From contig CAWKCY010000002.1 of assembly GCA_963848195.1 (NCBI GenBank), positions 58,853-98,852 on the forward strand: a stretch of 40,000 nt of DNA, given 5' to 3'. The position numbers and the translations under genes were made by a program. Source of the DNA: an uncultured Ignavibacteriales bacterium (GTDB lineage: Bacteria; Bacteroidota; Ignavibacteria; Ignavibacteriales; Ignavibacteriaceae). Of this stretch, positions 4,945-33,984 are shown one piece after another. Below the pieces are notes generated by a model. That model searched no databases. It was not told the origin of the DNA and saw only the letters and a program-made list of their open reading frames with translations. The number at the start of each line of letters is the position of its first letter. The stretch's first letter is position 1.

Positions 4945-6294
4945 ATGAAAAGTCAAAAATTATCCAAAAGTCCCAAGATTTTTATCCTCGATACAAACGT
5001 AATTCTTCACGACGCCAGTTCTATAAATAACTTCCAGGAGAATGATGTTATTATCCCACTGCCTGTCATTGAAGAGCTAGACCATTTTAAAAGAGGGAGT
5101 CAGGTAATCAATCTAAATGCACGCGAATTTGCACGTACCCTGGATTCTCTTACCGGAACAGCAATATTTAACGGCGGCGTCTCAATGGGTAAAGGAAAAG
5201 GAAAAGTTGGAATAGCAATCTCCAGAGGATTAAGTAACGAGATTAAGGAGATTTTTAAAGAAGATACCCCTGACCACAGAATCTTATCTATTGCTCTTGA
5301 CTGGAATAAAAAAAGTAAAGATAAGTCCGTTATTCTTGTTACCAAAGATGTTAATCTGAGAATGAAAGCAAAAGCTCTTGGAATTCTTTCTGAGGATTAT
5401 ACTACTGATAGGATCGGCAGTGTTGAAGAGCTGTACAGCGGCAAGGAAATAGTCGAAAATTTCGATGATGACATTATCATTAAGTTTTTTCAAACCCCTT
5501 TTGAAGTACCCGCAGAAGAAATTTTGAAAAAATTAAAGGGTGAAGTTTTACCCAATAAGTTCTATATTTTTAGGAATCCTAACCGCTCTGTCCTTGCTTA
5601 TTTAGATCAAAACAAAGAAATGTTTAAGAAAATTGATAAAAATATTACATATGGAATAAAACCCCGGAACGCCGAACAGACTTTTGCAGTCGATGCTTTA
5701 ACTAATATTGAGATTCCCCTGGTAAGCCTCACCGGAAAAGCTGGTACCGGTAAAACACTTCTAGCTCTTGCAAGTGCGTTGAATATTAGAAAAAGCTACC
5801 GTCAAATATTTATTGCTCGACCCATTGTTCCCCTCAGCAACAAAGATATTGGCTTTCTTCCCGGAGATGTACAAAGCAAAATTGAACCTTATATGCAGCC
5901 TTTGTGGGATAATTTAAGGGTTATACAGGATCAGTTTTCGGAAACCGATAAACAATATCAGATGATTACAAATATGGTAAAAGAAGAAAAACTTGTAATA
6001 GAACCATTATCTTATATCAGGGGGAGGAGTCTGCAAAGAATATTTTTCATCGTTGATGAAGCACAGAATTTAACTCCTCATGAAATAAAAACTATTATTA
6101 CAAGGGTGGGGGAAGGCTCAAAGATTGTATTTACAGGAGATATTTATCAGATTGATCATCCTTATCTTGATTCTCAATCTAACGGTATGTCATATTTGAT
6201 AGATCATTTTAAGGGACAGAAACTGTATGCACATATTAATTTAGAAAAAGGTGAAAGATCTGAATTAGCTGAATTAGCCAGTAACCTGCTGTAA
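4945..6294 (+). CDS. PhoH-like ATPase with N-terminal PIN domain (YlaK-type)
   Basis: N-terminal PIN motif (FILDTNVILHD), Walker A (GKAGTGKT) and Walker B-like (FFIVDEAQN). Confidence 0.9.
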   Translation: MKSQKLSKSPKIFILDTNVILHDASSINNFQENDVIIPLPVIEELDHFKRGSQVINLNAREFARTLDSLTGTAIFNGGVSMGKGKGKVGIAISRGLSNEIKEIFKEDTPDHRILSIALDWNKKSKDKSVILVTKDVNLRMKAKALGILSEDYTTDRIGSVEELYSGKEIVENFDDDIIIKFFQTPFEVPAEEILKKLKGEVLPNKFYIFRNPNRSVLAYLDQNKEMFKKIDKNITYGIKPRNAEQTFAVDALTNIEIPLVSLTGKAGTGKTLLALASALNIRKSYRQIFIARPIVPLSNKDIGFLPGDVQSKIEPYMQPLWDNLRVIQDQFSETDKQYQMITNMVKEEKLVIEPLSYIRGRSLQRIFFIVDEAQNLTPHEIKTIITRVGEGSKIVFTGDIYQIDHPYLDSQSNGMSYLIDHFKGQKLYAHINLEKGERSELAELASNLL

Positions 6295-7230: not shown

Positions 7231-7575
7231 CTAACTTAATATGGCTCGGATTTTATCCTTTATTTCAGGCAGGTTATTTTTAATTGCATCCCAGAGTATT
7301 TCATAATCGACATTAAAATATTGATGTATTATTTTATCTCTCATTCCGGCAATCTTCTTCCATTCTATTTCTTTATGTTCCTTACGAAATTCTAGAGTCA
7401 GATTTTTAACAGCTTCTCCTATTATTTCAAAACTTCTTGAAAACGCTCTCGTATACATCTCATTTTCAAGAAATGAATTAAAATTAAGATTTTCTGTCGT
7501 TTTTAACAAAAATACAATTTCATCCAGGATATGTCTTAAGTATACTTCGTTATGCTTCATACCACTTAACTTCAT
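7231..7575 (-). CDS. hepT: HepT (DUF86) toxin of a type VII TA pair
   Basis: 114 aa with the RxxxxHxY motif (MRDKIIHQY). Overlaps the upstream nucleotidyltransferase gene by 26 nt. Confidence 0.85.
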   Translation of the reverse strand: MKLSGMKHNEVYLRHILDEIVFLLKTTENLNFNSFLENEMYTRAFSRSFEIIGEAVKNLTLEFRKEHKEIEWKKIAGMRDKIIHQYFNVDYEILWDAIKNNLPEIKDKIRAILS

Positions 7576-7849
7576 TATTTATATAAGGAAGTATATACGG
7601 GCTAATCCCCTTTTCAGTTAAAAGATCCACTTTTCTATTGAATATTTTTTCTAATTCAAATGCTAATTCCATATAGTTATCAAATGTCTTTTCTTCAAAA
7701 TCTACAAGTAAATCGATATCACTTTTTGAAGTCGCCTCGTCACGAATATAAGATCCAAATAATCCAATTTTTCTAACACGATATTTTTTAAGCAACTCTC
7801 GATTTCTTCGGAGGACTTCGAATATTTCTCTTGAAGATAACTTTTTCAT
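7550..7849 (-). CDS. mntA: MntA nucleotidyltransferase antitoxin
   Basis: 99 aa with the minimal NTase motif GLFGSYIRDEATSKSDIDLLV. Confidence 0.85.
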   Translation of the reverse strand: MKKLSSREIFEVLRRNRELLKKYRVRKIGLFGSYIRDEATSKSDIDLLVDFEEKTFDNYMELAFELEKIFNRKVDLLTEKGISPYILPYINNEVKWYEA

Positions 7850-10582: not shown

Positions 10583-11289
10583 CTTGATTCCATTTACGGA
10601 GAAGATATTCGTCAATATATTTCCTCTTCCGTAAGAATAACAAGAACTACTCACGTGCTGCTATGACTAAGGTTTACAAATTTATGAGACTTACTACTGA
10701 AGAATTTATCAGGCGCTTTCTACAGCATGTCCTCCCTAAAGGATTTGTTAAAGTTAAATACTTCGGGTTGTTCGCCATAAAAAACCGGAATCTTCTTAGC
10801 ATTGTCAGGCAACTATTCGATTCTACTACTATAATTAATACAAAACCTAATGATAAAACCGCTGCAAAAAAAAATCCTTGATAATTTTATGTCCGGTATG
10901 CGGGAATCAAATGAATTTAGTACTTACACTACAGCGTCTTAATTATTACGATAAGTCTCCGCCTTTAAATAAATTTTCCTTTTTTATAAATGATGAACAC
11001 TTAGCTATAAATAAAAATCTTAATAGTTCTCAATAAATTATTTCTAAATATGGAAAATTATCTCAATATAAATGAATTTATAATTACGCTTAAGCTGGTT
11101 ATCGAAAAAAAATCAAATTTCATCCCTTCAATATCCCTCTTTCGGACATATTTTGGTTTATTTCTTCTATATAAAATTTATTGAAATTACAGGTTAGTAG
11201 AGTAAGTCGCTTACGGCTTAGTCCAACACAGGATTATCATATATGGCTATGCCATGCCTCGGCAAGCTTCGGCATGAATCCCTTATAAC
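10583..11289 (+). mobile_element. internal-deletion derivative of the IS91-like element (variant A)
   Basis: 10583-10668 matches the recombinase gene at about 12855-12940. After that come the transposase C-terminus, a roughly 250-bp right end and the terminal hairpin CATGCC-tcggcaagcttc-GGCATG, ending ..cttataac|GTTATAT. Confidence 0.7.
10663..10881 (+). pseudogene. IS91-family transposase C-terminal fragment
   Basis: EEFIRRFLQHVLPKGFVKVKYFGLF aligns with EEFIRRYIQHVLPKGFVKVRYFGLF of the intact copy (24399-25565). Confidence 0.75.
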
Positions 11290-11308
11290 GTTATATGCTT
11301 ACTTAACA

Positions 11309-12397
11309 TTAATAAATTTGATACGTTATTTTATAAAATACAACTTTTGAACCATCATCCGAGAATATTGGCTCAATCCCATTTGATAATAATTTTTTAT
11401 CAGTACCATCACTATTTGATACCCATAATTCGTAATCAAAGAATTCATTAACTGTTTGATTTTCAAATTTATTTTTTTGCTTCATAACTACATAAGCAAG
11501 TTTAGTACCGCCCTTAGAAAAAGAATATTCGAAATCATTTTGCGGTAATTCATCAATATAACTTGCTTGTAAATCTTTTAAATTTATTGAAATTAAATGA
11601 TTTGGATAATCATTTGTTATTGCCGCTACTCTTTCAGAATTACTTGAAATTTTCAAAGGACCAAAATATGATAGATTTCCATACAAAGATATATTACTAG
11701 AATCTTTTATTGAGTATATACATAATGTATCAAGTATTCCCATATTAACATTATTATTTATGAAATATATATTTGAATCAGAGTCATCAAATTTAGGGTA
11801 ATTAAAAAAAGGTGTCCACATATCTTTGCGATCAGGTCTTTTAAGAATCACCTTACTTTGTTTACTTTTTATATCGTAAATGGATATTGTTTGATCACCA
11901 TTCCCTGATTCTGTAGGAGATGTAGTATATACCACTTCTGAACTATCATGTGAAAAAGAAGGATAATTTTCTATTTGGTTTGGTGTGTGAGTAAGATTTG
12001 AAATTTCATAATTTGTAAGATCTATTAAATATAGATCCATATTAACATCAGTTGTAGCACTTACAACAAGATATTTCTTGTTCGGAGATATTTCAGCATG
12101 AATAATACTATAAAAATTCAATTTAACATCCTGAATAATATTCATATTTGATAAATCAATCATCTGAAGTCTATCATTATTCAATGATAAAATCCTCTCA
12201 TCATTCTGAATAATAAATAAATATTTTGAAATATAATTTACTTTTGATTCTTGAAAATATGAACCGTCAATATTGCTAATGCAAAGGCTATAAACAGAAT
12301 TAACAGAGGGGTAACCTTCAACTCCATCTTCTTTTATATAACATGATGAAATCGAACAAATAACTATTATTATTAATAATATTTTGAAATTTTTCAT
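11309..12397 (-). CDS. lipoprotein with TolB/PD40-like beta-propeller repeats (cassette)
   Basis: Lipobox ICSISSC. Repeated motifs of the type ISPNKKYLVV / FSHDSSEVVY / FSKGGTKLAY / FSDDGSKVVF. Confidence 0.6.
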   Translation of the reverse strand: MKNFKILLIIIVICSISSCYIKEDGVEGYPSVNSVYSLCISNIDGSYFQESKVNYISKYLFIIQNDERILSLNNDRLQMIDLSNMNIIQDVKLNFYSIIHAEISPNKKYLVVSATTDVNMDLYLIDLTNYEISNLTHTPNQIENYPSFSHDSSEVVYTTSPTESGNGDQTISIYDIKSKQSKVILKRPDRKDMWTPFFNYPKFDDSDSNIYFINNNVNMGILDTLCIYSIKDSSNISLYGNLSYFGPLKISSNSERVAAITNDYPNHLISINLKDLQASYIDELPQNDFEYSFSKGGTKLAYVVMKQKNKFENQTVNEFFDYELWVSNSDGTDKKLLSNGIEPIFSDDGSKVVFYKITYQIY

Positions 12398-12409
12398 AAT
12401 GGATTTAAG

Positions 12410-12608
12410 TAATTTTTAGCAAGTAGGCGTTGTTGCTAAGCCGCCGCCCAAAACAACAATGCCAAATTTGTTAATTAAATTTTATGTTTAGAAAAACTTT
12501 TAACTATTGAATCAAGTTGAACAAGTTAGCCGAAGCGGAGTACCTTACATTAAAATTTATAAAATGCCGAATGCGTAAGAAGCGGTCGGCTTGAGCAACT
12601 TGTTGAAC
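12410..12608 (-). repeat. attC (non-canonical R' end) of the higBA-like cassette, separated from it by the IS
   Basis: ..cgttgttgCTAAGCCGCCGCCCaaaacaacaatgcc...aaaatgccgaatgcgtaagaaGCGGTCGGCTTgagcaactt GTTGAAC (12602-12608). Confidence 0.7.
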
Positions 12609-14320
12609 TAAGCCGCAAGCGGCGGGGAGGTTTTCGGCATTCTACCTATTTCATTGCATCCCGCTTTTACATAGTATACCCCAACTAAATAATTTTTTCT
12701 ACCATCAATAATTTAGCGAGGTATACTATGAACGAACTAATTCAAAGACTTAACGAAAATATGCAACTTTTCGGTCTTTCTCAACGCACTCCAGAAACTT
12801 ATTCTTACCGTGTAGTAAAATTTATTGAGTATTTTAATAAACCTCTTGATTCCATTTCCGGAGAAGATATTCGCCAATATTTCCTCTTCCTTAAGAATAC
12901 CAAGAACTACTCACGTGCTGCTATGACTATTGCATTATGTGCCATTAAATTCTTTTATGAAAAAACCCTTAATGAAAAGTTCAATGTTTTTAATATCATC
13001 CGTCCCAAACGTATCTTTAAACTACCGGTTGTTCTTAGCAGGGAAGAAGTAAGAAAAATTCTTATGAATATCCGTGTACTCAGGCATCGGGCTTGTTTAA
13101 CTCTCATCTACTCTTGTGGTCTTAGATTAAATGAAGGCGTAGGCCTGAGAGTTAACCAGGTTGACAGTAACAGAATGTTAATTCATGTCCAGAAAGCTAA
13201 AGGTAACCATGACCGGTATGTACCTCTACCTGAAGCAACTCTTAAATTACTCAGACTTCATTATAAAACTCACAGAAACCCTCTGCTTGTTTTCCCCGCC
13301 CCCGGAAGAGGACAGAACAATGAGTCTACTTCTATTAAACCTCTTCCTGACAGCAGTATACTCCCATAGGGATGGCTATGCCAAGACCGTATTTAAGAAA
13401 TCTCTTAAACAGACCGGCATCAACAAGGACGCTTCTGTACATACTCTCAGGCATTCTTACGCTACTCATTTACTTGAAGACGGTACCGATATTAGAATCA
13501 TTCAAGACTTTCTCGGGCATTCCTCTATTAGAACTACTATGATCTATACCCAACTAACACCTTTGATTAAATCTAATACCTATCAAAAGATAAACAGCTT
13601 AATGAACGACCTCTTCTAGCTCTGCTGCTGTGGTTAAGCTATCGGAGATTATTAGGGACTATAGAGATATCTATCTGGCTAAATATTCTAACTCAATGCT
13701 TCTTTCACATAAGAAAGCACTCTTCGATATCTCTTCTTGCCGGACTCCCATTATAGGAGGACAAGTATACAAATGTAATTCTTGCAGCTATTATCATTAC
13801 AGCTTCCATTCTTGCGGCAATAGAAGCTGTAATAATTGTCAGAACAATAATGCCAATGATTGGTTAGCCAAAAACAATAATCTGCTGCTTCCGGTTAGTT
13901 ACTTCATGGTTACCTTTACTTTACCTAAAGAGTTAAAGCGTTTTGCAAGAAGCAATCAAAAACTTTTTTACAATATTCTGGCATAGCCATCCCTTTGGGA
14001 TATTCAACTGCTCGGCAAAAACCATTGACTCCTTCTCATCAAATCCAAAACACATTGGTGCTAAACCCCGGATATCTCGGCGTGCTGCATACCTGGTCTA
14101 GTTCCGAAGGAATGGATTACCAAAAACTATCCTTCCATCCGCATATCCATTATCTAATTACCGGTGGTGGCCTATCGGTTAACAGTCAATGGGTTAGCTC
14201 AAATAATAAATTCTTATTCCCAGTTAAAGCTCTATCCATTGTCTTTAAGGCCAAATTCCGGGATGAATTAAGAAAGTCAATCCACTGTTATTGCCTCGGC
14301 AGGCTTCGGCATGAATCCCT
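12609..14320 (+). mobile_element. decayed IS91-like element (variant A): frameshifted recombinase and truncated transposase
   Basis: Left end TAAGCCGCaaGCGGCgg directly after GTTGAAC. The right terminal hairpin (14293-14316) is fused to the middle of the transposase gene. Confidence 0.75.
12728..13619 (+). pseudogene. tyrosine recombinase, frameshifted (two overlapping ORFs, 12728-13369 and 13185-13619)
   Basis: Both pieces are collinear with the intact 287-aa recombinase (23539-24402). The [15 protein letters not shown] and LGH..TTMIYT motifs lie in the second frame. Confidence 0.8.
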
Positions 14321-14324
14321 TTAG
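13630..14324 (+). pseudogene. IS91-family Y2 transposase, N-terminal half with an internal stop, 3' truncated
   Basis: A Zn-ribbon (CNSCSYYHYSFHSCGNRSCNNCQ) and the HUH region (LHTW...HPHIHYLITGGGL) are split over ORFs 13630-13986 and 13995-14324. Confidence 0.75.
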
Positions 14325-14347
14325 GGCACATGTTTGTGAAAAGTTTA

Positions 14348-14623
14348 TTATCTAATATTTAATTGGAGTTTCTTTCCAATTGCTTCAAGGTAATTTTTTA
14401 ATGTTGATATTCTGATGTCTTCTGAATGGTTTTCAATTCTTGATATTGCTGATTTTTTTGTTTTTAATTTGCGGGCAAGTTCTTCCTGGGTTATTCCAGC
14501 TTCTTCTCTCGCTTTTCTTAAAGCAATACCTATTTTGAAGTTATCGTATCCGGTTTCAAAATCTTTTGCAAACTTTTTACTCTTTAATTTTCTTTTTTCT
14601 ATATATATTTCTAAATCATCCAT
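14348..14623 (-). CDS. XRE-family HTH antitoxin (HigA-like)
   Basis: 91 aa with the [35 protein letters not shown]. Sits downstream of, and overlaps, the toxin gene. Confidence 0.8.
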
Positions 14624-14969
14624 TTCTTTTACTCCTATTTATATATTCTTTCATCCTTTTTTCCGCAGTCTCAATTTCTTTTTTTGGTGTCTTTTGAGTT
14701 TTCTTATGAAATCCATTTGTTAAAACAATAAAATTATTACCATCAAAAAATCCAAGTATTCTAATAGTATCTCTTCCAACTTGAACTCTTATTTCCCATA
14801 AATCAGTTGAAACCAATTTTTTAAAATATTCTTTTGGAATTAAATCTAAGTCTCTAATTATTCTTAAAACCCAAGCTACTTTCTTAGCTTGCTTATCAGT
14901 TAAACTTTCCAAAAACTCTTCAACTGGAGAATCACCTCTTTCGTTTTTGTAAAATATAACTATTTTCAT
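14616..14969 (-). CDS. RelE/ParE-superfamily toxin (HigB / Gp49-DUF891-like)
   Basis: 117 aa with the toxin-first gene order typical of higBA; [42 protein letters not shown]. Confidence 0.75.
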
Positions 14970-15041
14970 ATTACAAAGTTAACATATTCGTTAACGTTTG
15001 CAAATATTAACAAATTGAGGATAAGATTATTTGAATACCAT

Positions 15042-15288
15042 TAGTTCTCAAATAATTATTTTCAAGTATGCAAAAACTTCTCAATACTAATGAATTTATA
15101 ATTACGCTTAAGCTGGTTATTGAAAATAAATCAAATATGATCGCTTCTATATCCTTTCTTAGGACATATCCGGGTTTAGTACTTCTATAAACATTTTATT
15201 GAAATTACAGGTAGTAGAGTAAGTCGCTTGCGGCTTAGTCCAACACAGGATTATGCCTCGGCAGGCTTCGGCATGAATCCCTTATAAC
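15042..15288 (+). mobile_element. right-end fragment of IS91-like variant A
   Basis: About 250 bp nearly collinear with 11025-11289, ending ATGCC-tcggcaggcttc-GGCAT gaatcccttataac|GTTATG. Confidence 0.7.
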
Positions 15289-15289
15289 G

Positions 15290-16813
15290 TTATGTTTTTA
15301 CTTTACTTATTTGAGAAACATTTGATAATAAATCTTTAACGATATTGTTTGCTTCAGAAATAATTGCTTCCGGATATTTCATTATCCCTAATAATTTAAT
15401 GGCATTACCAGATGAACAAGGTCCTTCTTTAATTTTATAATTAAAAAAGATTTTACCGTTTTCCACTTGCTCACTAAAATGAAACATCTTAAAATTATGT
15501 TCTAGTAAATCTTGTAATTCAACGTCGTGTGTAGTAACAAATACTTTATTATTTATATCAAGATATTTCAAAACAGCAGTAGAAGAAGCAAGTCTCTCAA
15601 TTTTGTTTGTTCCTCTCAATATTTCATCAACAAGAAACAAAATAATTCTTCTTTCCTTCCGACAATTTTATAAAATTATTTAGCGATTCTATTTCAACAA
15701 AGAAATAACTTTTTCCTTCTTCCAATTCTTCATTTCTACGGATTGATGATTAAACAATAAGTTTTGGAGTGACTATTTCATTAGCTAAACCAAAATACAC
15801 TGACTGTGAAAGAATAATATTTATTCCTACTGTTTTAATAAAAGTTTTTTGCCAGACATATTTGACCCAGTAATCAAAACAGAATCTTTTATATTTTCTA
15901 CAGTATTCGATACAGCATTCTGAACCAAAGGATGATATAAATCCCGGAAATTTATCTCATCACATTAGTAAAGGTCGGGGTTGTATAAAATGGAATTTCT
16001 TCTAAATAAGAAGCGATAGATATCGAAGTATCGAGACTGGCTACATTTTCAAAAACAGAGCGTATATCATCTTGTTTTTTTATCAGAGTATTAACCGAAC
16101 GATAATATGCAATTATATCAAACAATAAAAACATATTTAGGTATTCTATTACAGCAAGTGCAAGTTCATTCAATGATAATTTGTCAATAACAAAAAAACC
16201 TAGTTTCTTTTTAAGTGATTTTAATAAGTACCTTTTTTCTTTTAGGAATTCAACCTCATCGATTACAATATTAGTTTTTATTTTACTTAATGAGATAGCT
16301 GATATTATTAAAGAATTAAGACTGGAAAAGCCGGTAAAATATTCATAAATCTTTTTTGAAAATATTTTATTAAGAATAAGATTGGTTAATAAAATGGCTA
16401 ATGAAACAAAAAGAAATACCATTTATAGAAATAAAAAGAAGAGAAATTATTGAAAGAAGTGAGCATAAATAAAAAAGCGGATAAAACTTTGTATTAGGAA
16501 GATCTTTACTTAAAACTAAATACGATGTAAAGTAAGATTCTGTACCGGATAATCTAAAAAGATTTATCTGAATACTTTCTCTTAATTCTTTATTCTTTTT
16601 AAGGTGGGAAACTAATTTATATCTCTTTTCAAGAATTTTTTCATCGCTTTCATATTTATGTAAAAGATAATATAAATATTGTTGACTAATACCAGATATA
16701 TTTCTATCAATTTTAGCAAAAACTGAATCGATATCTAAATCATTCCAGGTTTTATCATCAACATATTCGTCATCACTTTTCTTTGCCAATAAATTATAAT
16801 ATGAAGAAATCAA
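15290..16813 (-). pseudogene. MutS-domain-V-type ATPase with N-terminal membrane region (MutS-related, non-MMR), decayed
   Basis: Three ORF pieces. The N-terminus has DDKTWNDLDIDSVF plus TM segments. The gap at 15640-15950 encodes ITGSNMSGKKTF (Walker A) in a broken frame. The C-terminus has FLVDEILRGTN...VFVTTHD. Confidence 0.7.
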
Positions 16814-16848
16814 ATCATAATTTCTATGTTTATCTATTTGTTTTCCCC

Positions 16849-16887
16849 ATTATGCCTCGGCAAGCTTCGGCATGAATCCCTTATAAC
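16849..16887 (+). mobile_element. solo terminal hairpin of IS91-like variant A
   Basis: ttATGCC-tcggcaagcttc-GGCATgaatcccttataac, immediately followed by GTTAGGT (16888-16894), the R'' box of the upstream cassette. Confidence 0.6.
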
Positions 16888-17054
16888 GTTAGGTGCATTT
16901 TTATTACACAAAGTAATGATATATTTTTCTATTTGTTAATAGCTATAGTAATGTTAAAAATCCAATTCCAAAATCAATCAAATCATTATTGTCATCATAA
17001 TATCCTTTATAATGATTTGTTTTTAGATATTGAATCTTTAAAACAAGAGCCCAA

Positions 17055-23224: not shown

Positions 23225-23414
23225 CCCTAACGGCTAAGGTTAAGCTGCTGCCCATAACTACAATGCAACATTTAAAAACCCAAGCCGATGATTTTTAACA
23301 AACTTTTTTATTTAAAAATACTTTAGACAAGATACTTTAATCGGAGCACAAAACTCTAAAATCTGTAAAATGCCGAGTGCGTAAGAAGCAGTCAGCTTAA
23401 ACCTAATGTTGAAC
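23225..23414 (-). repeat. attC, separated from its cassette ORF (25834-26658) by the IS
   Basis: cCCTAACggctaaggtTAAGCTGCTGCCCataactacaatgc ... aaaatgccgagtgcgtaagaaGCAGTCAGCTTAaacctaatGTTGAAC (23408-23414). Confidence 0.8.
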
Positions 23415-23538
23415 TAAGCCGCTAGCGGCAGCCTTACTAATTATCTACCATAAAAAAGCATCCTGCAAATAAAAGTTGGTCATGTCTTTCCAGTAATTTT
23501 TAGATAAATCAATTTTCTCAAATTATAAGGAGGAAGAC

Positions 23539-24402
23539 ATGACACAACTTCGTAAAAAAATGCTCGAAGATATGAAACTCTTCGGCTTATCTGAACGTAC
23601 TCAGGAAACTTACATTTATGCCGTAAGTAAACTTGCACAATATTTTCATAAGTCACCAGACCTCATCTCTGATGATCAGCTTAGAGAGTATTTCCTATTC
23701 CTGAAAGATAAATATGCTCGTAATACTTCCACCATTGCTATCTGCGGTATTAAGTTCTTCTTTGAAAAATCCTTAAAGAAACCATTTAAGATATTCGGCA
23801 TCGTTCGTTCTCCAAAAGTTAATAAGCTTCCCGTTGTTCTTACCAGAGAAGAAGTACAACTGATATTAAAAAACATCCGTACACTCCGCCACCGTGCTTG
23901 TCTTAGCCTTATTTACTCTTGCGGACTTAGATTAAAGGAAGGTGTATCCCTTAAAGTAAACCAGGTAGACAGTAAACGCATGGTTATTCATATTCAGCAA
24001 GCTAAGGGATTAAACGACCGTTATGTTCCGCTTCCTAAAGCAGCTTTAGAAATTCTCCGTGCTCATTATAAAACTCACCGGAATCCTTTACTTGTCTTTC
24101 CTGCTCCGGGTAGAGGAGAAAGTCAAGAATCTAGTTCTACAAAACCTCTGCCGGATAGTTCTATACAAACTGTCTTCCGGAAATCTTTGCTTGAAACCGG
24201 CATCAATAAAGACGCTCATGTTCATACTCTCAGACATTCTTATGCTACTCATCTTTTGGAAGACGGTGTTGATATTAGAATCATTCAGGAATACTTAGGA
24301 CATAACAACATTGAAACTACTATGATCTACACTCATCTTACTCCTCTTATCAAAGATGGAGTTTATAATAAAATAAACTCTCTGATGGATGGCTTAGTAT
24401 GA
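23539..24402 (+). CDS. tyrosine recombinase (phage-integrase family) of the IS91-like element
   Basis: 287 aa with SAM-like N-domain and catalytic residues in [25 protein letters not shown] and TTMIYTH. Confidence 0.9.
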   Translation: MTQLRKKMLEDMKLFGLSERTQETYIYAVSKLAQYFHKSPDLISDDQLREYFLFLKDKYARNTSTIAICGIKFFFEKSLKKPFKIFGIVRSPKVNKLPVVLTREEVQLILKNIRTLRHRACLSLIYSCGLRLKEGVSLKVNQVDSKRMVIHIQQAKGLNDRYVPLPKAALEILRAHYKTHRNPLLVFPAPGRGESQESSSTKPLPDSSIQTVFRKSLLETGINKDAHVHTLRHSYATHLLEDGVDIRIIQEYLGHNNIETTMIYTHLTPLIKDGVYNKINSLMDGLV

Positions 24403-25565
24403 TTGCTTTATCTGATATCCTTCAGACATACGGACTGTCTTATTTGGAAAAGTATTCAGCTTCAATGCCCTATAATCATAAAGCAGCAATCCGTAATATT
24501 CTTCAATGCCGGACTGAAAAACTTGGCGGTCAGGCTTATTATTGTGATAACTGCAAACAGTACCGTTATAGCTATCATTCATGCGGTGACAGAAACTGCA
24601 ATAAATGCCAGTGTGATAAAGCTAAAGAATGGTTTAGTAAAACTTCTCAGCTTCTTCTTCCCCTTACTCACTTTTTAATTACCTTCACCATGCCCGATAT
24701 TTTAAGACAGCTTACAAGAGCTAACCAGCTTCTATTTTACAATATACTTTTTAAGGCTGCTTCAGCTTCGCTGCAAACTTTAGCTTGGGACTCAAAATAT
24801 GTCGGAGGCAGAATTGCTATGATGGCCGTTCTGCATACCTGGACAAGAACTCTTAACTACCATCCACATCTGCACTTTATTGTTCCCAGTGGTGGCCTTT
24901 GGGATGATGGTAATCTCTGGCTGCAAAGCAGTGAGAAATTTCTTGTGCCTGTTTGTGCATTAAGTAAACTCTTTCGTGCTCAAATGCAGAAGCGGATTAA
25001 AAACAAGGCTCCTGAATTATATAATTCCATTCCAAATAAAGTCTGGAATCAAAAATGGGTCGTGCACTGTAAAGCTGTGGGAACCGGACAGAAAGCTGTG
25101 CAGTATCTTTCCGAATATGTTTTTCGTCCCGCTATAAGTAATAACAGGATAATAAACATGGATAATGATTTTGTTACATTCAGCTACAAAGACAGTAAAA
25201 CTCAGTTTAAGAAAACAATGAAACTTATTCCGGAAGAATTTATCCGGCGTTATATTCAGCATGTGCTGCCTAAAGGTTTTGTTAAAGTGCGTTACTTCGG
25301 GTTGTTCTCTAATACCAATAGAAAACTTCTTGCTGAAGTTAAAGAAAGATTACCTCAAAATAATTATAATTATCCAAAGAACCCTGAAACCAAACCCGCA
25401 GATGTTAAAACTGCAGAAGTTAAATCAACAACTCATAGAATAATTATTTGTCCTCATTGTAATAAGCCAATGCGGATTATAGGAAGTCTTCCAAAATTAA
25501 TATACAATGATAAATCTCCCCCTTATAATATATTTATCCACTTATACAGCACTTTTAATGGATAG
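24399..25565 (+). CDS. IS91-family Y2 HUH (rolling-circle) transposase with an N-terminal Zn-ribbon
   Basis: 388 aa with CDNCKQYRYSYHSCGDRNCNKCQ, the HUH region LHTWTRTLNYHPHLHFIVPSGG and the Y-x3-Y motif AVQYLSEYVFR. Overlaps the recombinase gene by 4 nt. Confidence 0.9.
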   Translation: MIALSDILQTYGLSYLEKYSASMPYNHKAAIRNILQCRTEKLGGQAYYCDNCKQYRYSYHSCGDRNCNKCQCDKAKEWFSKTSQLLLPLTHFLITFTMPDILRQLTRANQLLFYNILFKAASASLQTLAWDSKYVGGRIAMMAVLHTWTRTLNYHPHLHFIVPSGGLWDDGNLWLQSSEKFLVPVCALSKLFRAQMQKRIKNKAPELYNSIPNKVWNQKWVVHCKAVGTGQKAVQYLSEYVFRPAISNNRIINMDNDFVTFSYKDSKTQFKKTMKLIPEEFIRRYIQHVLPKGFVKVRYFGLFSNTNRKLLAEVKERLPQNNYNYPKNPETKPADVKTAEVKSTTHRIIICPHCNKPMRIIGSLPKLIYNDKSPPYNIFIHLYSTFNG

Positions 25566-25833
25566 ATTTTTTCTGTCTGTGGTAATCCCTAGCCTGAAAA
25601 TGAAATGACTGGTATTATTTCGATAAATACTTTACTGTTTGACTTTTAATTTGTTCTTTATTGTCTTTTTAACTTTTCTTTTCTGTTCTAAAACAAAGTT
25701 TGACAAACCTAATCCTCCATTGAAAACCCAAATAGTTTTCTGAATATGACCTGCATACTGCTATGCCCGGGCTTGTTCAACAACGGTTTGAAACTCGGCA
25801 AGCTTCGCTTCAAACCTTATTTCGTTAGGTTGC

Positions 25834-26658
25834 TTATTGTATAACATATTTTTTTTTAATAAAATCTTTAAATAGTTTCCATGGGCTTTCTTCTCCAATT
25901 CCAAAATAATCTTTTGGAGTATATACTATCTCATCTATAATTGGATAAATAGCAAAATTATTATCTGGCAGCATATGTATTTTATACTGGTAATTATCTT
26001 TTTCTTCTATACGAAATAGACTAACAGGTAAAAAGTAACTACTATCAACTTTGAAATATTGTTCTTCTTTTGCTCCATGAAACCAATGACCGAAAAAACT
26101 TACTGTTAAACTATCACCTCTATTAAAATATTTTTCTCCTTTTATTACATCCTCAATTTCAACAACCATATCTGATTGTCTTAAATTGATTTTTAAATCT
26201 TTAGAGTAATAATTTGATTCATCAAACCTTTTGACCTTTATTCTGAACAAATATGGAACCAATAATAAATCAGCAAAAGCAGAAGAATAATATTCAGTTA
26301 TTTTTTCTCTAATTATTCTAAGTTTTACGGCAGGTTTTTTGTGAACTATTTTATAATTGTTATTGATGATTTCTTCTTCCCATCCTTTATGCAATTTTTC
26401 AAAATAAAAATAATATTCGGTTGGATACTCGCAAATCACGTTATAATATTCAGTTGCAAAATCTTTTATTTCTTCAAAAGTAAAATCTTTTTTCCAACCA
26501 AGTGAATCATTATAAAAGGAGAAGATTTTTTCAGCGTCATCGAAAAAATCAATAACATTTTTTGAATATTGTTCATCTTGAACTTTTTCATAGACTGAAT
26601 TAATTTTCCAACTAAAGAATAAAAGTAATATTGTTAGAAAATACTTATATCTTATCAT
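25834..26658 (-). CDS. hypothetical secreted protein (cassette)
   Basis: 274 aa with an N-terminal hydrophobic signal. No recognisable domain. Confidence 0.55.
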   Translation of the reverse strand: MIRYKYFLTILLLFFSWKINSVYEKVQDEQYSKNVIDFFDDAEKIFSFYNDSLGWKKDFTFEEIKDFATEYYNVICEYPTEYYFYFEKLHKGWEEEIINNNYKIVHKKPAVKLRIIREKITEYYSSAFADLLLVPYLFRIKVKRFDESNYYSKDLKINLRQSDMVVEIEDVIKGEKYFNRGDSLTVSFFGHWFHGAKEEQYFKVDSSYFLPVSLFRIEEKDNYQYKIHMLPDNNFAIYPIIDEIVYTPKDYFGIGEESPWKLFKDFIKKKYVIQ

Positions 26659-26662
26659 AGCT

Positions 26663-26851
26663 ACCTAACGCGGCGCGTTTTACCCGCCGCCCAAAACAGC
26701 AACGCCAATTAGAATTAAACTTCCAATAATCTGAAAAGTGAGTGCAAGGCCCGGTAACTTTGAACAAGTTTGCCAAAACGTAGCAGTTCTGCCGAATACT
26801 TTTGAAATGCCGAACGCGAAAACGCGGTCGGGTAGAAACGCATGGTTATAC
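26663..26851 (-). repeat. attC (GC-rich stem subtype)
   Basis: aCCTAACgcggcgcgtttTACCCGCCGCCCaaaacagcaacgcc ... aaatgccgaacgcgaaaacGCGGTCGGGTAgaaacgcatgGTTATAC. Confidence 0.85.
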
Positions 26852-27323
26852 CTATTTTATTAAACTGGAAATCGTTTTTATTTCTTTTGATAAATTCAAT
26901 ATTTAATTCATTGAGGTTATCTTCATACTTATAAAACTCTTTGTCTAACTCATCCCACTTTTCATTTGCAAAGTTTTCTATTTGTTGAAGTAAGGCAATT
27001 CTTTCATCTCTATCTTTAGGCGCCAGCTTATTAGGGAATTGGCTTATGGCTTTTTGAAGAATTGAAGATGTTCTGTTTGCACCTATAGCTTTTAAAGCTT
27101 CAATTGTCTCGTGAGAATAATCGCCACTGGAATTATAAAAATACTGATTAAAACCGCCATTGTTAACTTCTCTTTCCAGGCACTGATTGTAGTAGAAAGT
27201 TTTTTGAGCTTCCGTTAGCTTTTCCAATCTTTCTCCATATTCGCACAATTCTTCTACATAATTATCAATTTCAATAATTGAATTATTAAGATTATCTGAA
27301 ACAAGTAATTTATCTAAATTCAT
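26715..27323 (-). CDS. DUF4375 / DMP19-like protein (cassette); the annotated 3' end reads through the attC
   Basis: NNGGFNQYFYNSSGDY and the surrounding helices are typical of the DMP19 C-terminal (DUF4375) family. The last roughly 45 codons are encoded by the attC. Confidence 0.65.
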   Translation of the reverse strand: MNLDKLLVSDNLNNSIIEIDNYVEELCEYGERLEKLTEAQKTFYYNQCLEREVNNGGFNQYFYNSSGDYSHETIEALKAIGANRTSSILQKAISQFPNKLAPKDRDERIALLQQIENFANEKWDELDKEFYKYEDNLNELNIEFIKRNKNDFQFNKIGITMRFYPTAFSRSAFQKYSAELLRFGKLVQSYRALHSLFRLLEV

Positions 27324-28437: not shown

Positions 28438-28616
28438 GCCTAACATATTTATTGAGTTGTTTTACTATCCTTTTATTAATGTCTATATTTAGACATTAAT
28501 GTCTACATATACACATCTTTTTCCCAAATGTCTATATATAGACATATTTAAATGTCTATATATATACATTTTTCAATTTTCGAAGTGACCTCATTTAATT
28601 TCTTTTCCTAAAATAT
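28438..28616 (-). other. putative attI region with the recombination junction G|TTAGGC
   Basis: The minus strand reads ..ctcaataaatatGTTAGGCac (28444-28438). This is the first GTTRRRY downstream of intI, and no attC precedes it. Confidence 0.55.
28479..28569. promoter_or_regulatory. four tandem 18-bp palindromic operator-like sites ATGTCTA-N4-TAGACAT
   Basis: Sites at 28479-28496 and 28528-28545 are perfect. Sites at 28499-28516 (TAcACAT) and 28552-28569 (TAtACAT) each have one mismatch. Confidence 0.6.
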
Positions 28617-28970
28617 TTAAGTTACTATTCTATCTTCAAAACCTAATGCTAATATATCTTTATATGGTAACTCCCACAATTTTAATTCCCTATTCCACTT
28701 TCCACCTGCATTTTTTATCAAACTGCCTATTTTTACTTCGCCGTAATTAACTTTTACATGCAGAATCTTATTTAATTGTATTCTATCACAATTCCTATTC
28801 CAATCCTTTTCGTCTACAATTATTTCAACAGTGGTTAATTTTTTCTTCTTCTCCTCATCAATCCTATATCTAATACATATAAGCTTTTTACCGTATTTTC
28901 TCTCCCAGCTCTTTGTCCCGTTTTGACTCGGGTACAATGTCCTTTTAACTTTCATAAATTTATTTCTCAT
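28617..28970 (-). CDS. conserved small hypothetical protein between intI and attI
   Basis: 117-aa basic protein (..LICIRYRIDEEKKKKLTTVEIIV..GGKWNRELKLWELPY..), starting 38 nt after the intI stop on the same strand. Confidence 0.6.
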   Translation of the reverse strand: MRNKFMKVKRTLYPSQNGTKSWERKYGKKLICIRYRIDEEKKKKLTTVEIIVDEKDWNRNCDRIQLNKILHVKVNYGEVKIGSLIKNAGGKWNRELKLWELPYKDILALGFEDRIVT

Positions 28971-29008: not shown

Positions 29009-29932
29009 CTACAATTTATCTGCTGGACTCTTTACTCCCATTCCTCCTTTTCTCATAACATGAGTATAAATCATTGTGGTATTTAAATCTTCATGGCCAA
29101 GTAATTCCTGAACTGTTCTTATATCATAACCATCTTCTAAAAGATGGGTTGCAAATGAATGACGGAAAGTATGACAACTGCCTTGCTTTTTTATTCCTGA
29201 ATTTTTTATCGCAACTTTCACTACTCTTTGAAGTACACTTTCATCTATATGATGTCTTCGTTTCAATCCTGTCCTTTTATCTACCGATATTTGTGAAGAT
29301 GGAAATACATATTGCCAACCTAATTCTTTATTTGCATTTGGATATTTCTCTTCCAATGCATATGGTAAATAGACTCCTCCCAAGCCTTTTTTGATATCTT
29401 CATTATGTAGATTTTCAACTTTTATTAAATGACGGTTCAATTTATCTTTTATAATTTCCGGTAAAATTGTAACTCGATCTTTACTACCTTTTCCATTCCT
29501 TATATTTACTTGGTTATATTCAAAATCTATATCCTTAACTCGTAGCCTGATACATTCCATTAAACGCAATCCTGAACCATATAATAAATTCGCCATTATC
29601 CAGTTTACTCCCGTCAATTTAGTCATTACAGCTTTCACTTCAGTTTTGGTAAATACAACTGGTAATCTCTTCCCTTTTTTTGCCCAAATTAATTCTAATT
29701 TTTCTAATTCTTTGTTTAATACATGCTTATATAAAAATATTATAGCACATAAAGCCTGGTTTTGAGTTGAACTCGAAACATTTCTTTTTACGGCTAAATA
29801 ACTGATATATTTACTAATTTCATTCGCCCCAAGTAATAAAGGATGTTTTTTTTCATGAAATAAAATAAAATCCCTTATCCAATTAATATAAGTTTCCTCC
29901 GTTCTCTTACTATAATGACTAACTCTCATCAC
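29009..29932 (-). CDS. intI: integron integrase
   Basis: Tyrosine recombinase motifs ([47 protein letters not shown]). Also the IntI-specific insertion ALEEKYPNANKELGWQYVFPSSQISVDKRTGLKRRHHIDESV. Confidence 0.9.
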   Translation of the reverse strand: MMRVSHYSKRTEETYINWIRDFILFHEKKHPLLLGANEISKYISYLAVKRNVSSSTQNQALCAIIFLYKHVLNKELEKLELIWAKKGKRLPVVFTKTEVKAVMTKLTGVNWIMANLLYGSGLRLMECIRLRVKDIDFEYNQVNIRNGKGSKDRVTILPEIIKDKLNRHLIKVENLHNEDIKKGLGGVYLPYALEEKYPNANKELGWQYVFPSSQISVDKRTGLKRRHHIDESVLQRVVKVAIKNSGIKKQGSCHTFRHSFATHLLEDGYDIRTVQELLGHEDLNTTMIYTHVMRKGGMGVKSPADKL

Positions 29933-30316: not shown

Positions 30317-30440
30317 TGACCACCAACTTCTAACTTCTGGATCCATCTGTCCACTGACTTCTGATCCCAGACCTCTGACTTCTGTGTGCCGACTAATGAC
30401 CATCTGACCTCAGATCTCCGACTTCTGACCTCCAACTTCA
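30317..30440. repeat. degenerate tandem repeats (minus-strand motif CAGAAGTCRG)
   Basis: ccaacttctaacttctgg / ccactgacttctgatc / gacctctgacttctgtg / ccgacttctgacctccaacttc. Confidence 0.7.
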
Positions 30441-31412: not shown

Positions 31413-31659
31413 TTTAGCCCATTTAGTATATTGTAAAAAGAAATAAAACCTTCGACAACTTTTAAAAAGCAATTCCCCAACTACAATTCCCAAACTCCAG
31501 ATAAAACTACCTGCCCTGCCGGCCTGCAAAATTCCCCGAAATAAGTACAACCTTTGATTAACATATTTAAAATTTTAATTTTGAAATTAAGATATATTTA
31601 TTTTTTGTTACGGAATTTTGGAACAATACATCAATTGATGGAACCGTTATAGCTCCCTC

Positions 31660-32602
31660 CTAACTCCAAGACAACTCCAAGGTAACTCCAAGATAACTCC
31701 AAGGTAAATCCAAGCTATTCAAATAAAAATCAAACGGATCCTCCTGATCCATATCTATTATCTCCATATCTGCTTTATACATAGTTAATTTTCCGAATCC
31801 TAACTTTCCTCCCTTGTAATACATATAATTTGAAGCACTCGAATCCGGGTTAAGAGGAGATGCATTCTTTGTCATAAAAGTTTGAATTACCTCTCCCTTT
31901 CCCACCTGAAGCTTTTCAAGGTGACCTTCTATTCTGGGAGGCGGCAGCATTTTGGAAGGATCATGATAAAAGTCATTGTCAACTATTTCCGCACCCCTGT
32001 TTTTGTCCACCCTTAAAAGATCCTCCAATTCTAACTTAAAAAATTTCATCAGTCCGCTTACATTGATACCCAAAACATCCGTTTTTACCGGATGAAGCCT
32101 AATCTTTCCTTCAGGAGTTACGCTAACCTCCGATAAAATAGTAAAAGGGATACCCTTCATTTTCCCTTCTTGCTTCAATTTATCTCCTTCAGTACTTACT
32201 TTGATATCTTTTAAAGAAAATCCTTTAAACCCAAAGACGTAACGGTTTAATAAATTGCTTAGACTTTTCATATCTAATGAAATAATTGCATTTTCTAAGC
32301 TTAAAAGAATTCCCCTCATCAAATACCGGATAACCATTTTTTTTGACTGCAATTAATTCCCCCTGAAGCCTTTTTATTTTCATTATAATGTCCGTATCTA
32401 TCCTAAAATTTACATTTTTTATTTCCGTTTGAACATCAGTCCCGTTTATTTGCACCGGGAAATTAGTACTGTCTATTTTCTCATTTTTCTCATTGTTTTC
32501 TCTTATCACTTTTATATCTCTAAAAAAAAGCGCAATTACACAAATTACCAAAAAGATAATAATTATCGGTAAAGAAAACTTTATTATTCTTAGGGGTTCC
32601 AT
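31660..32602 (-). pseudogene. membrane-anchored hypothetical protein split at an A8 tract (or phase-variable / assembly error)
   Basis: ORFs 32225-32602 and 31660-32352 fuse into one roughly 314-aa frame if one A is removed from the homopolymer at 32337-32344. Confidence 0.55.
31661..31715. repeat. five copies of an 11-bp tandem repeat (WAACTCCAAGR)
   Basis: taactccaaga caactccaagg taactccaaga taactccaagg taaatccaagc. Confidence 0.8.
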
Positions 32603-32670: not shown

Positions 32671-32815
32671 TAATCATAATCACTCCTTTTTTAATCATAT
32701 CCTTAATAGTATTTGATCGTAATCATGCTAGTAATCGTAATCATGCTTGTAATCCTACTCTTACTCGTAATCTTACTCATACTCGTAATCTTACTCATAC
32801 TCGTGCTCGTACTCA
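32671..32815. repeat. hexanucleotide-periodic tract (about 17 units of CNTAMT type)
   Basis: cgtaat catgct agtaat cgtaat catgct tgtaat cctact cttact cgtaat cttact catact ... Confidence 0.8.
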
Positions 32816-32931: not shown

Positions 32932-33984
32932 ATGAAAATTGCAATCTTATTATCAGGCGGGGTCGACAGCTCGGTTGCCTTAAAACTATTAAAAAATGCC
33001 GGCCATAATCTTACCGCATTCTATCTTAAAATATGGCTCCAGGATGAATTCTCGTTTCTTGGTGAATGCCCATGGGAAGAAGATTTGAACTATGTCCGGA
33101 AAGTCTGTGAAAAAGAGAATATTCCGCTGGAAATTCTGCCCTTACAAACAGAATACTGGGATTCAGTCGTTTCCTACACTATTTCCGAAATAAAAGAAGG
33201 CCGTACCCCAAATCCCGATATTTTCTGCAACAGCCTTATAAAATTCGGTCAGTTTTATGATAAAATCGATAATTCTTTTCAGAAAGTTGCCAGCGGTCAT
33301 TATGCTAAAGTTGAAAAACTAAACGGAAAATATGCCTTAAAAATTGCCCCCGACCCTGTAAAAGATCAAACCTATTTTTTATCATATCTAAAACAGACGC
33401 AATTATCCAGAGCTCTGTTTCCACTGGGGGAATTTAATAAATCTCAAGTGAGGGATCTGGCAGAGCAGTTTGACCTCCCGAATAAAAATAGAAAAGACAG
33501 CCAGGGCATATGCTTCTTAGGTCAAATTAAATTTAATGATTTTATTAAACACCATTTGGGTGAAATTAAAGGCGACATAATCGACTCGGATACAAATAAA
33601 AAATTGGGAGAACATGACGGATATTATTACTATACAATTGGCCAAAGATCCGGACTAGGGTTATCAGGAGGCCCCTGGTATGTCGTTGAAAAAGATATCA
33701 AAAATAATTTGGTATTTGTATCTAAAGAAAACAAAATAAAAAGAGAAAGAGATACTTTTTTTGTAACAAATCTAAATTGGATTCTGGAATCAAAACCCGA
33801 TAAAAAAGATATTAAAACTAAAATAAGACATGGCAAATTTTACTATGATTGTCATATAGAATTTGAAAAAGAAAATCTTTTAAAAGTACAGCTAGATAAA
33901 AAAGATAAAGGAATAGCACCCGGTCAGTTTGCTGTCTTTTATCAAAATGATTTATGTCTCGGCGGCGGAGTGATTGTAAATTAA
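32932..33984 (+). CDS. mnmA: tRNA 2-thiouridine(34) synthase
   Basis: 350 aa with a PP-loop (LLSGGVDSSVA) and the conserved ..DSQGICFLG.. motif. Confidence 0.93.
   Translation: MKIAILLSGGVDSSVALKLLKNAGHNLTAFYLKIWLQDEFSFLGECPWEEDLNYVRKVCEKENIPLEILPLQTEYWDSVVSYTISEIKEGRTPNPDIFCNSLIKFGQFYDKIDNSFQKVASGHYAKVEKLNGKYALKIAPDPVKDQTYFLSYLKQTQLSRALFPLGEFNKSQVRDLAEQFDLPNKNRKDSQGICFLGQIKFNDFIKHHLGEIKGDIIDSDTNKKLGEHDGYYYYTIGQRSGLGLSGGPWYVVEKDIKNNLVFVSKENKIKRERDTFFVTNLNWILESKPDKKDIKTKIRHGKFYYDCHIEFEKENLLKVQLDKKDKGIAPGQFAVFYQNDLCLGGGVIVN

Follow-up and report, generated by a model that had tools for sequence, protein, structure and literature searches.

Closest described systems

Insertion sequences of the IS91 family are known by a Y2 HUH transposase (TnpA), and we here describe a member of this family, hereafter element E, which carries a second gene for a tyrosine recombinase and lies within an integron cassette array of an uncultured Ignavibacteriales bacterium. 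The DNA analysed is a stretch of 40,000 nt (assembly GCA_963848195.1, contig CAWKCY010000002.1, positions 58,853 to 98,852 of the forward strand); this whole stretch is called the window, and coordinates refer to it. As the reference for canonical IS91, the copy on the E. coli plasmid NC_019061.1 was used. IS91 and E have in common the Y2 HUH transposase with a Zn-binding N-terminus (NF033538) and, apparently, the lack of a long target duplication, and a rolling-circle, single-strand mechanism is presumed for both. IS91 contains a single gene for transposition, its inverted repeats are terminal (TCGAGTAGG/CCTATCGA), and GAAC flanks its right end, which reads ..AAATTCCTATCGAT^GAAC (carets mark junctions and cleavage points); the right ends found in the array and in the family studied here, GAATCCCTTATAAC, AAACCTTATTTC and GAATCCTTTATTC, resemble AAATTCCTATCGAT by eye. 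On the other hand, E differs from IS91 in the added tyrosine recombinase, in a right inverted repeat that is subterminal and followed by a hairpin tail, and in its flank, which is likewise fixed but is GTTA(G/T) inside structured recombination sites and not GAAC/CAAG.

Several IS91-family members, including ISAzo26, ISSod25, ISShvi3 and ISWz1, have a phage-integrase-type gene upstream of the transposase gene. They have the same two-gene layout as E, and their recombinase is closest to IntI, without the IntI insertion. The literature searched assigned these integrase-carrying members no target specificity and their recombinase no function, and it contained no mention of R'' targeting, attC-like ends or dif-like targets for them. 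To our knowledge, only the IS1111-attC insertion sequences and the group IIC-attC introns home on attC. Recombinases associated with IS91 elements were placed beside IntI in an 'Integron-like' subgroup (Smyshlyaev et al., bioRxiv 10.1101/542381). An initial annotation of this DNA, made from the sequence alone, had also stated that members with an extra integrase gene exist. ISShvi3, an IS91-like element, adjoins an attC in a Shewanella integron, and targeting was not inferred there (PMC9229058). The same annotation had taken attC targeting to be undescribed for the IS91 family; in agreement, the literature searched, whose coverage was incomplete, contained no account of IS91-family or HUH elements that target attC or dif, which is absence of evidence only. 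E belongs to a known family and has an apparently undescribed target specificity.

Elements of the IS1111-attC group (ISPa21, ISPst6 and ISKpn4; IS110/IS1111) target attC near its 5' end and antisense to the cassettes (PMC3001079), by means of a DEDD transposase guided by a seekRNA (PMC11187229). They form circles and split a cassette from its attC, and their insertion geometry is that of E; however, they have no HUH enzyme and no tyrosine recombinase, and their ends are unrelated. Group IIC-attC introns also insert near the 5' end of attC, antisense and beside a stem, their target being recognised as folded single-stranded DNA, again with the geometry seen for E, but they are retroelements that consist of a ribozyme and a reverse transcriptase. 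In our domain search, E contained only the HUH Y2 and tyrosine recombinase domains, with no DEDD (IS110-type) transposase and no reverse transcriptase domain, and no Rfam family matched within 7000-33000.

Integron cassettes, which IntI moves at attC, share with E the layout of the cassette ends, GTT at both junctions and an IntI-related recombinase, and the folded single strand is the likely substrate for both. E differs from cassettes by its use of the R'' box (that of the other strand) in reverse orientation, by a recombinase without the domain that reads extrahelical bases, and by a single-stranded copy of its own that would be made by the HUH enzyme. At dif sites, IMEX elements such as CTX phage are integrated as single strands by the host XerCD, with no HUH transposase, and IS1202-group elements, which target dif and pdif, insert at a distance of 5 bp from the XerC side, with duplication of the target (PMC10132070). 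Relatives that share the left end of E are found in dif-like palindromes, ATAA-N6-TTATGT, where the insertion point falls between the central region and an arm.

An intact IS91-family element inside an attC

Element E occupies 23408-25823 on the + strand (2,416 bp) and has both genes and conserved ends. The upstream gene (23539-24402, +) encodes a tyrosine recombinase of 287 aa with Phage_int_SAM_4 and Phage_integrase domains (E 1e-40), in which the catalytic residues R131, K156, H229, R232, H255 and Y264 were assigned from motifs. Its best NCBIfam match was the integron integrase model TIGR02249, with 184 bits in two stretches and below the cutoff of 265, and its best PDB match was IntI4 (2a3v). 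It was 31% identical to the IntI of the resident integron, with a gap of ~28 aa where the IntI-specific insertion is missing. Judging from these matches, the E recombinase is of the Integron-like subgroup type, resembling IntI without the IntI-specific insertion. The downstream gene (24399-25565, +) encodes a Y2 HUH transposase of 388 aa with Zn_Tnp_IS91 (PF14319) and Y2_Tnp (PF04986) domains, which scored 382 bits against NF033538, 'IS91 family transposase' (cutoff 125). Its N-terminus is of the Zn-binding type, and its HUH motif (H157-L-H159) and the tyrosines Y236/Y240 are invariant in the alignment. The two open reading frames share an ATGA overlap (24399-24402). The initial annotation had described an intact two-gene IS91-like element with tyrosine recombinase and Y2 HUH transposase, and the domains, the NF033538 score and the intact catalytic motifs confirm this description.

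The left end (LE) of E is GTTGAACTAAGCCGCTAGCGGC (23408-23429, +); it opens with 7 nt that match GTTRRRY, and a GC palindrome comes next. Near the other end, a subterminal inverted repeat of the LE (IRR), GCCCGGGCTTGTTCAAC, lies at 25765-25781 (+), and its last 7 nt, GTTCAAC, fit RYYYAAC. It is followed by the right-end hairpin (25785-25816, +), composed of GGTTTGAA, a loop with CTCGGCAAGCTTCG, and TTCAAACC, and by the terminal 7 nt TTATTTC (25817-25823, +), the last part of an IS91-type ori-end motif, which abut the target GTT.

The cassette open reading frames of the array run on the - strand from ~28450 down to ~7000 and are separated by attCs of 190-240 nt, which fall into repeat families. 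A strict regex-and-fold scan for short attCs gave nothing useful, the attCs here being 190-240 nt long; they were identified from core-site listings and repeat families and verified by folding. Specifically, four intact attCs were folded, and their R''/R' and L''/L' boxes were paired, with extra bases in the L'' arm. The array is a complete chromosomal integron since an integron integrase gene (IntI; 29009-29932, -), co-oriented with the cassettes, scored 444 bits against TIGR02249 (cutoff 265); the true start of IntI is probably slightly upstream of the annotated frame. The first-cassette junction is atGTTAGGC at ~28439-28447.

E lies in the attC of the third cassette and is antisense to the cassettes. 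The larger part of this attC, with the L'' arm, the variable part, L' and the R' core GTTAGGG, is at 23225-23407 (-), and its R'' core ACCTAAC (GTTAGGT on the + strand) is at 25824-25830 (-). On the + strand, the larger part begins with CCCTAAC, the complement of R' (23225-23231), and extends to ..cttaaacctaat at 23407. Read on the - strand, the cores are ACCTAAC (25830-25824) and GTTAGGG (23231-23225), the pattern also seen in the neighbouring attCs, and GGTTTAAGCTGACTGC pairs with GCAGCAGCTTAACC with 2 extra bases left over. The complement of R'' stands three bases from the stop of a cassette open reading frame of 274 aa without a Pfam family (25834-26658, -), which E splits from its attC. 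In full, the + strand reads ..cttaaacctaat^GTTGAACTAAGCCGCTAGCGGC...(E)...CAAACCTTATTTC^GTTAGGTtgcTTA, where the final TTA is the stop of that frame. In the uninterrupted attCs of the array, the corresponding sequence is ..cttaaattgcattGTTAGG, with a + strand end ..cttaaattgcatt GTTAGG, and the rejoined (empty) form of the E site would read ..cttaaacctaatGTTAGGttgc. E is thus positioned between the L''-side spacer and the R'' core, and the junction in cassette sense is 5'-ACCTAAC^ATTAGG. Such an empty allele was not found among the three other assemblies with the cassette protein or its 90% cluster relatives; the contigs of those three assemblies (146,983, 57,153 and 14,647 nt) also bear insertion sequence genes or fragments.

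The flanks of E being the two parts of one attC, the placement at the R'' box between a cassette gene and its attC, as first annotated, stands, and so does the GTT that had been noticed at both junctions (23408-23410 and 25824-25826), which is compatible with a 3-nt duplication; either copy may be the one that belongs to E. The left boundary, on the other hand, had to be moved. It had been set after GTTGAAC and thus lay 4-7 nt inside the element, as GTTGAACTAAGCCGC.AGCGGC forms the conserved left end throughout the family; GTTGAAC is part of this end and not of the target, and the boundary lies at or within the GTT at 23408-23410. The GTTGAAC..TAAGCC sequence is element sequence and not ordinary attC sequence. 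The link that had been drawn to the IS91 target through GAAC/GTTC was dropped, since the GAAC of IS91 flanks the right (ori) end, whereas E has GTTA(G/T) as its right flank and carries its GAAC within the left end.

Because E splits the attC, the cassette should no longer be excisable on its own, and decayed copies of such elements should remain as permanent scars.

Copies at the same position within and outside the array

Four further copies, all on the + strand, were found in the array. A degenerate sister element, B (12602-14321), is 73-74% identical to E at the nucleotide level; its integrase gene is frameshifted, its tnpA is broken and 3'-deleted, and its right end is shortened (..CCCTT^TAGGGC). 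Its left end interrupts a different attC at the corresponding point (..gagcaactt^GTTGAAC). Remnant A (10600-11289) is a heavily deleted element of the B type, which ends ..CCCTTATAAC^GTTATATG and adjoins the stop of the cassette frame 11309-12397 (-). Remnant C (15042-15288), also of the B type, retains a 3' non-coding part, the IRR and the right end; it ends ..CCCTTATAAC^GTTATG at the stop of the cassette frame 15290-15640 (-). Remnant D (16850-16887) consists of the right-end hairpin and terminal motif only and ends ..CCCTTATAAC^GTTAGGTG, with the nearest listed cassette frame ~160 nt further on. The left-end motif had 4 matches in the window against 0.01 expected from shuffles, and the right-end motif CTCGGCARGCTTCG had 5 against 0.09. 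Within the window, each of the five right ends and two left ends is located at an R'' box, and all point the same way, antisense to the cassettes. The array contains 222 GTTA sites on both strands and at most ~15 R'' boxes (a rough estimate and not a tool count), and five sites, about one third of the attCs by a rough count, are occupied or scarred.

Four of these five IS91-type right ends are decayed (10600-16900); they have kept the right end at R'' and lost the left part, and in remnants C and D the rest of the attC is lost too. With the left parts gone, neighbouring cassettes have therefore become fused.

To these five sites, metagenome copies outside the window, found by exact-protein look-ups and one DNA-pattern scan, added ten (L-numbers are labels of the contigs or loci compared with the window). 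E-type copies, whose TnpA was 85-88% identical to that of E and whose integrase, where complete, was ~93-100% identical, were present in L082-L085, L105, L183, L186 and L001, and B-type copies in L123 and L183; the E ends were also conserved in L082-L085, L105, L183 and L186. The cassette flanks of these copies differed (L082-85, L105, L123, two in L183, L186 and L001). Their left flank was attC sequence wherever it was present, and the right flanks were GTTAGGtataatg, GTTATATGG, GTTAGGCC, GTTATGTGC, GTTAGGCAA, GTTAGGGC, GTTATAC, GTTAGGTTTAC and GTTAGCCCT. In total, close homologues (TnpA 47-88% identical to that of E, or sister-type remnants) occupied 15 distinct sites, and all were attC R'' boxes. 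The initial annotation had proposed to look for homologues in unrelated sequence contexts, and among these close homologues there was none.

The insertion of E is site-specific; it borders the R'' core on its inner side and runs antisense to the cassettes. An ordinary insertion sequence could have landed in an attC without any target preference, since cassette arrays tolerate insertions; apart from this tolerance nothing speaks for it. The sister copies, remnants and metagenome copies share position and orientation, which places the insertion at R'' beyond chance; the comparison, with 15 distinct sites at one nucleotide position and in one orientation, and motif counts far above shuffles, refutes a chance landing, to which we attach next to no probability.

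Two of the outside loci contained other mobile genes. In L001 (3870-5430), the integrase gene of the E-type copy is interrupted by an IS3-family element (rve domains), with an IS21-type pair upstream. In L183, a gene for a group II intron-type reverse transcriptase (104-1336; RVT_1, GIIM) lies ~0.8 kb from the attC with an E-type element, and two classes of attC-associated elements may share one array there.

Targets of more distant relatives

We then turned to the wider family. The 22-nt LE of E was found as an identical 22-mer in 96 metagenome stretches; 80 of them were taken as loci, and these gave 64 unique left flanks. Targets of the attC type seen in the window were found within the 80-locus set only in L105 and L123. 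Instead, 29 of the 64 unique flanks ended ..ATAA-N5^GTT, and their right flanks, where known, were GTTATGT.. or GTTAGCG.. The rebuilt targets were palindromic, for example GCCGGACATAA-AGGAGG-TTATGTGTGGC, with the 11-6-11 geometry of dif, and the junction was at the boundary of the central region and the right arm. These dif-like palindromes (..CATAA-N6-TTATGT..) were seen in peat and soil metagenomes (L087-L166; e.g. L101, L116, L132 and L099). Palindromes that resemble other types of attC were the targets in L003, L004, L010 and L017, and solitary hairpins flanked by ordinary genes in L138 and L142. The feature shared by these targets was a stem with G^TTA(G/T)G as one of its arms. The proposal that the element targets attC accordingly stands for the close relatives of E and does not extend to the wider family, in which the identical left end is also found in dif-like palindromes and other hairpins.

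The GTT rule is not universal either, because proteobacterial members that carry the recombinase (L026, L079, L080 and others) end ..CCTTAAC^ without a GTT flank, and some of them have no GTT at the left end. Since these GTT-less members carry a recombinase gene, this gene is not always paired with GTT targeting. In L131, the right flank is ATTG while the left junction keeps GTT; this single case suggests that the left GTT would belong to the element. L131 fits an element that owns its left GTT and was inserted 5' of (G/A)TT, and it misfits a bottom-strand exchange of the IntI type at AA^C.

Ends and circle junctions of the family

Relatives of the transposase at E <= 1e-20 numbered 2,886. A scan of genome contigs, which returned only relatives of <=50% amino acid identity and served to define the family architecture, showed that 79 of the 80 related genome loci, which came from many phyla, have a recombinase gene directly upstream of tnpA and on the same strand. 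The family left end is GTTGAAC, with the variants GTTGGAC, ATTGAAC, TTTGAAC and TTTGCAC, followed by the GC palindrome, and LE and IRR covary (GTTGAAC/GTTCAAC, GTTGGAC/GTCCAAC, ATTGAAC/GTTCAAT, TTTGCAC/GTGCAAA). The family right end consists of the subterminal repeat, 0-3 nt, the hairpin, and 4-9 nt ending ..TTATTC, after which the flank begins. The stem of the hairpin is wholly different in sequence between clades and conserved in position; in a fixed-offset test without folding, its arms paired at 8.5 of 9 positions, versus 6.5 in shuffles. The left end matches the right flank over as much as 4-8 nt in some clades.

When right and left ends were joined as they would be in a circle, 25 of 25 modelled junctions folded into one two-stem layout, with an outer stem formed by IRR and LE, an asymmetric internal loop and an inner hairpin; for E, the folded junction had z = -2.4 and -3.2 on the two strands. 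In L002, L092, L096 and L121, a right end and a left end are joined by a single GTT (RE-GTT-LE), and these contigs could be circular forms or tandem copies.

The ends of E are laid out like those of a gene cassette, which starts with TTRRRY and ends with RYYYAAC, a stem and G. In fact, integrated E reads TTGAAC-[genes]-GTTCAAC-spacer-stem-loop-spacer-G and then TTAGGT, with TTGAAC at 23409-23414, GTTCAAC at 25775-25781, the hairpin at 25785-25816 and the G of GTT at 25824. Given this fit to TTRRRY....RYYYAAC-hairpin-G and a functional-looking IntI only 3 kb away, E might be a large gene cassette moved by the resident IntI, which would recombine its attC-like junction, with the two genes of E being passengers or serving in copying only. 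However, E is inserted at R'' and not at the G^TT of R' that IntI uses, its relatives also occupy dif-like and solitary hairpin sites next to chromosomal genes of ordinary appearance, where no nearby cassette array was evident, and the element always carries its own recombinase. As all copies are at R'' and antisense to all cassettes, we did not class E as a cassette, and consider its mobilisation by IntI very unlikely.

Some ends were irregular. Tandem duplications at the right junction comprised CCTTATTTCGTTA twice (L001, 6990-7035), TTATTTCGTT twice (L186, ~5790-5815) and the hairpin plus GTT twice (L074); each repeat unit ends in GTT(A), and the duplications may be initiation or termination errors at the ori end. 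Left ends without the two genes downstream were seen in L109 (1340-1470), L092, L093, L130 and L160, and in L109 the left end is fused directly to an inverted copy (GTTGAACTAAGCCGCTAGCGGCTTAGTTCAAC), followed by a hairpin. These gene-less left ends may be miniature non-autonomous derivatives.

Mechanism of insertion

The architecture of the ends of E points to a putative two-enzyme mechanism, in which the HUH transposase would copy out a single-stranded circle and the IntI-like recombinase would paste this circle in at GTT. We favour this model with moderate confidence. The initial annotation had suggested either HUH chemistry on folded single-stranded attC or tyrosine recombinase chemistry at the G^TT crossover point, and the present data are compatible with both. 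Specifically, the Y2 HUH transposase would nick the right end (ori) and peel off the antisense strand until the left end (ter) is reached, and the peeled strand would be closed into a single-stranded circle, with the junction ..CAAACCTTATTTC-GTT-GAACTAAGCCGC in the case of E. In the circle, the left end would pair with the subterminal repeat around the hairpin to give a two-stem site, laid out like a folded attC with an R box, an unpaired spacer, and an L box or hairpin. The recombinase would then exchange one strand at GTT between this junction and a target, folded or palindromic, in which G^TTA(G/T)G forms a stem arm, and replication would complete the insertion, as it does with integron cassettes and CTX phage. 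The product would be laid out like a cassette inserted backwards via the R'' box, which on the opposite strand reads as a GTTRRRY box.

Several observations are consistent with the role given to the recombinase. The targets (attCs and dif-like palindromes) are of the substrate types of the Xer/IntI clade, the best database matches of the recombinase are integron integrases, and the junction lies no more than 1 nt away from ..TAA^C, where IntI and XerD canonically cleave. In addition, ATAA is conserved at the spacing expected for a dimer, and the left end resembles the target arm. For the role of the HUH enzyme at the right end, the likeness of the terminal motif to the IS91 ori end can be cited.

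Other observations weigh against the two-enzyme model, every mechanistic step of which is read from sequence. Canonical IS91 needs only its transposase and inserts beside a fixed tetranucleotide at its right end, the proteobacterial members have no GTT flank, and L131 has the ATTG flank described above. Furthermore, the integrated right end of E alone is unstructured (z ~0), its hairpin being weak by itself, and the likeness of the E junction to attC is one of layout and core consensus.

Since canonical IS91 works with the transposase alone, the HUH enzyme alone could explain the GTTA flank. The Y2 transposase would then carry out both copy-out and insertion, cutting after ..(C/T)TAAC, which would be a variant of the tetranucleotide beside the IS91 ori end, at the foot of a hairpin in single-stranded DNA, and the recombinase would be an accessory, e.g. 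for multimer resolution, regulation or help with DNA binding. The fixed flank beside the right end of IS91 and its similar terminal motif agree with this, as do the GTT retained on the left of L131 although the right flank begins ATT, and the recombinase-carrying proteobacterial members without a GTT flank. The tandem duplications of the right terminus plus GTT(A) in L001, L186 and L074 resemble rolling-circle initiation or termination errors, and the geometry common to donor and target, in which a stem has a 5' arm that terminates in AAC^, suits HUH enzymes that read hairpins. However, a tetranucleotide is insufficient as a target, as the 5 insertions in the window and the 10 outside are all in R'' despite the many GTTA sites of the array. 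Insertion by the HUH enzyme alone also leaves unexplained why ATAA stands exactly 5 nt to the left in the 29 dif-like flanks, the core-site spacing of a dimeric recombinase, why the recombinase gene is near-universal and translationally coupled, and why the left end is like the target arm. We regard it as a real possibility that falls somewhat short of being probable.

Other features of the window

The integron itself had several additional features. IntI is co-oriented with the cassettes and not divergent from them, and an open reading frame of 117 aa (28617-28970) lies between intI and the presumed attI region (28447-28600), which contains several copies of the palindromic motif tgtctatat(a)tagaca. 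An open reading frame at 32932-33984 was considered as a divergent intI and rejected, since it encodes MnmA. One cassette (7231-7849) contains a HepT/MNT-type toxin-antitoxin pair, and a second overlapping pair of small genes is located at 14348-14969, between element B and remnant C. A DMP19-family cassette frame (26715-27323) runs ~135 nt into its own attC (26664-26850) before its stop. Outside the array, short repeats, tandem or interspersed, were found, namely 11-nt units TAACTCCAAGG in 4-5 copies, cgtaatc(a/t)t(g/a)ct units and ctgac(c/t)tc units (31650-31715, 32700-32800 and 30320-30440).

Significance

If the reading given here is true, E and its close relatives would be a third kind of attC-homing mobile element, with a chemistry unlike that of the IS1111-attC elements and the group IIC-attC introns. 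They would also give the first concrete clue to the role of the unexplained integrase in many IS91-family elements, as their targets are substrates of the nearest relatives of the recombinase (attC for IntI, dif-like sites for Xer) and their own ends mimic attC. Taking the two-enzyme model further, with a single-stranded circle made by the HUH enzyme and then pasted by the IntI-like recombinase into folded attC or dif-like sites, these elements might be the nearest living relatives of integron recombination, and a plausible model, ancestor or offshoot of the origin of the IntI-attC-cassette system from an Xer-type recombinase acting on single-stranded hairpins; we put this forward tentatively and consider it rather doubtful. 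For the biology of integrons, each insertion parts a cassette from its attC and fuses cassettes, and should alter their excision and shuffling.

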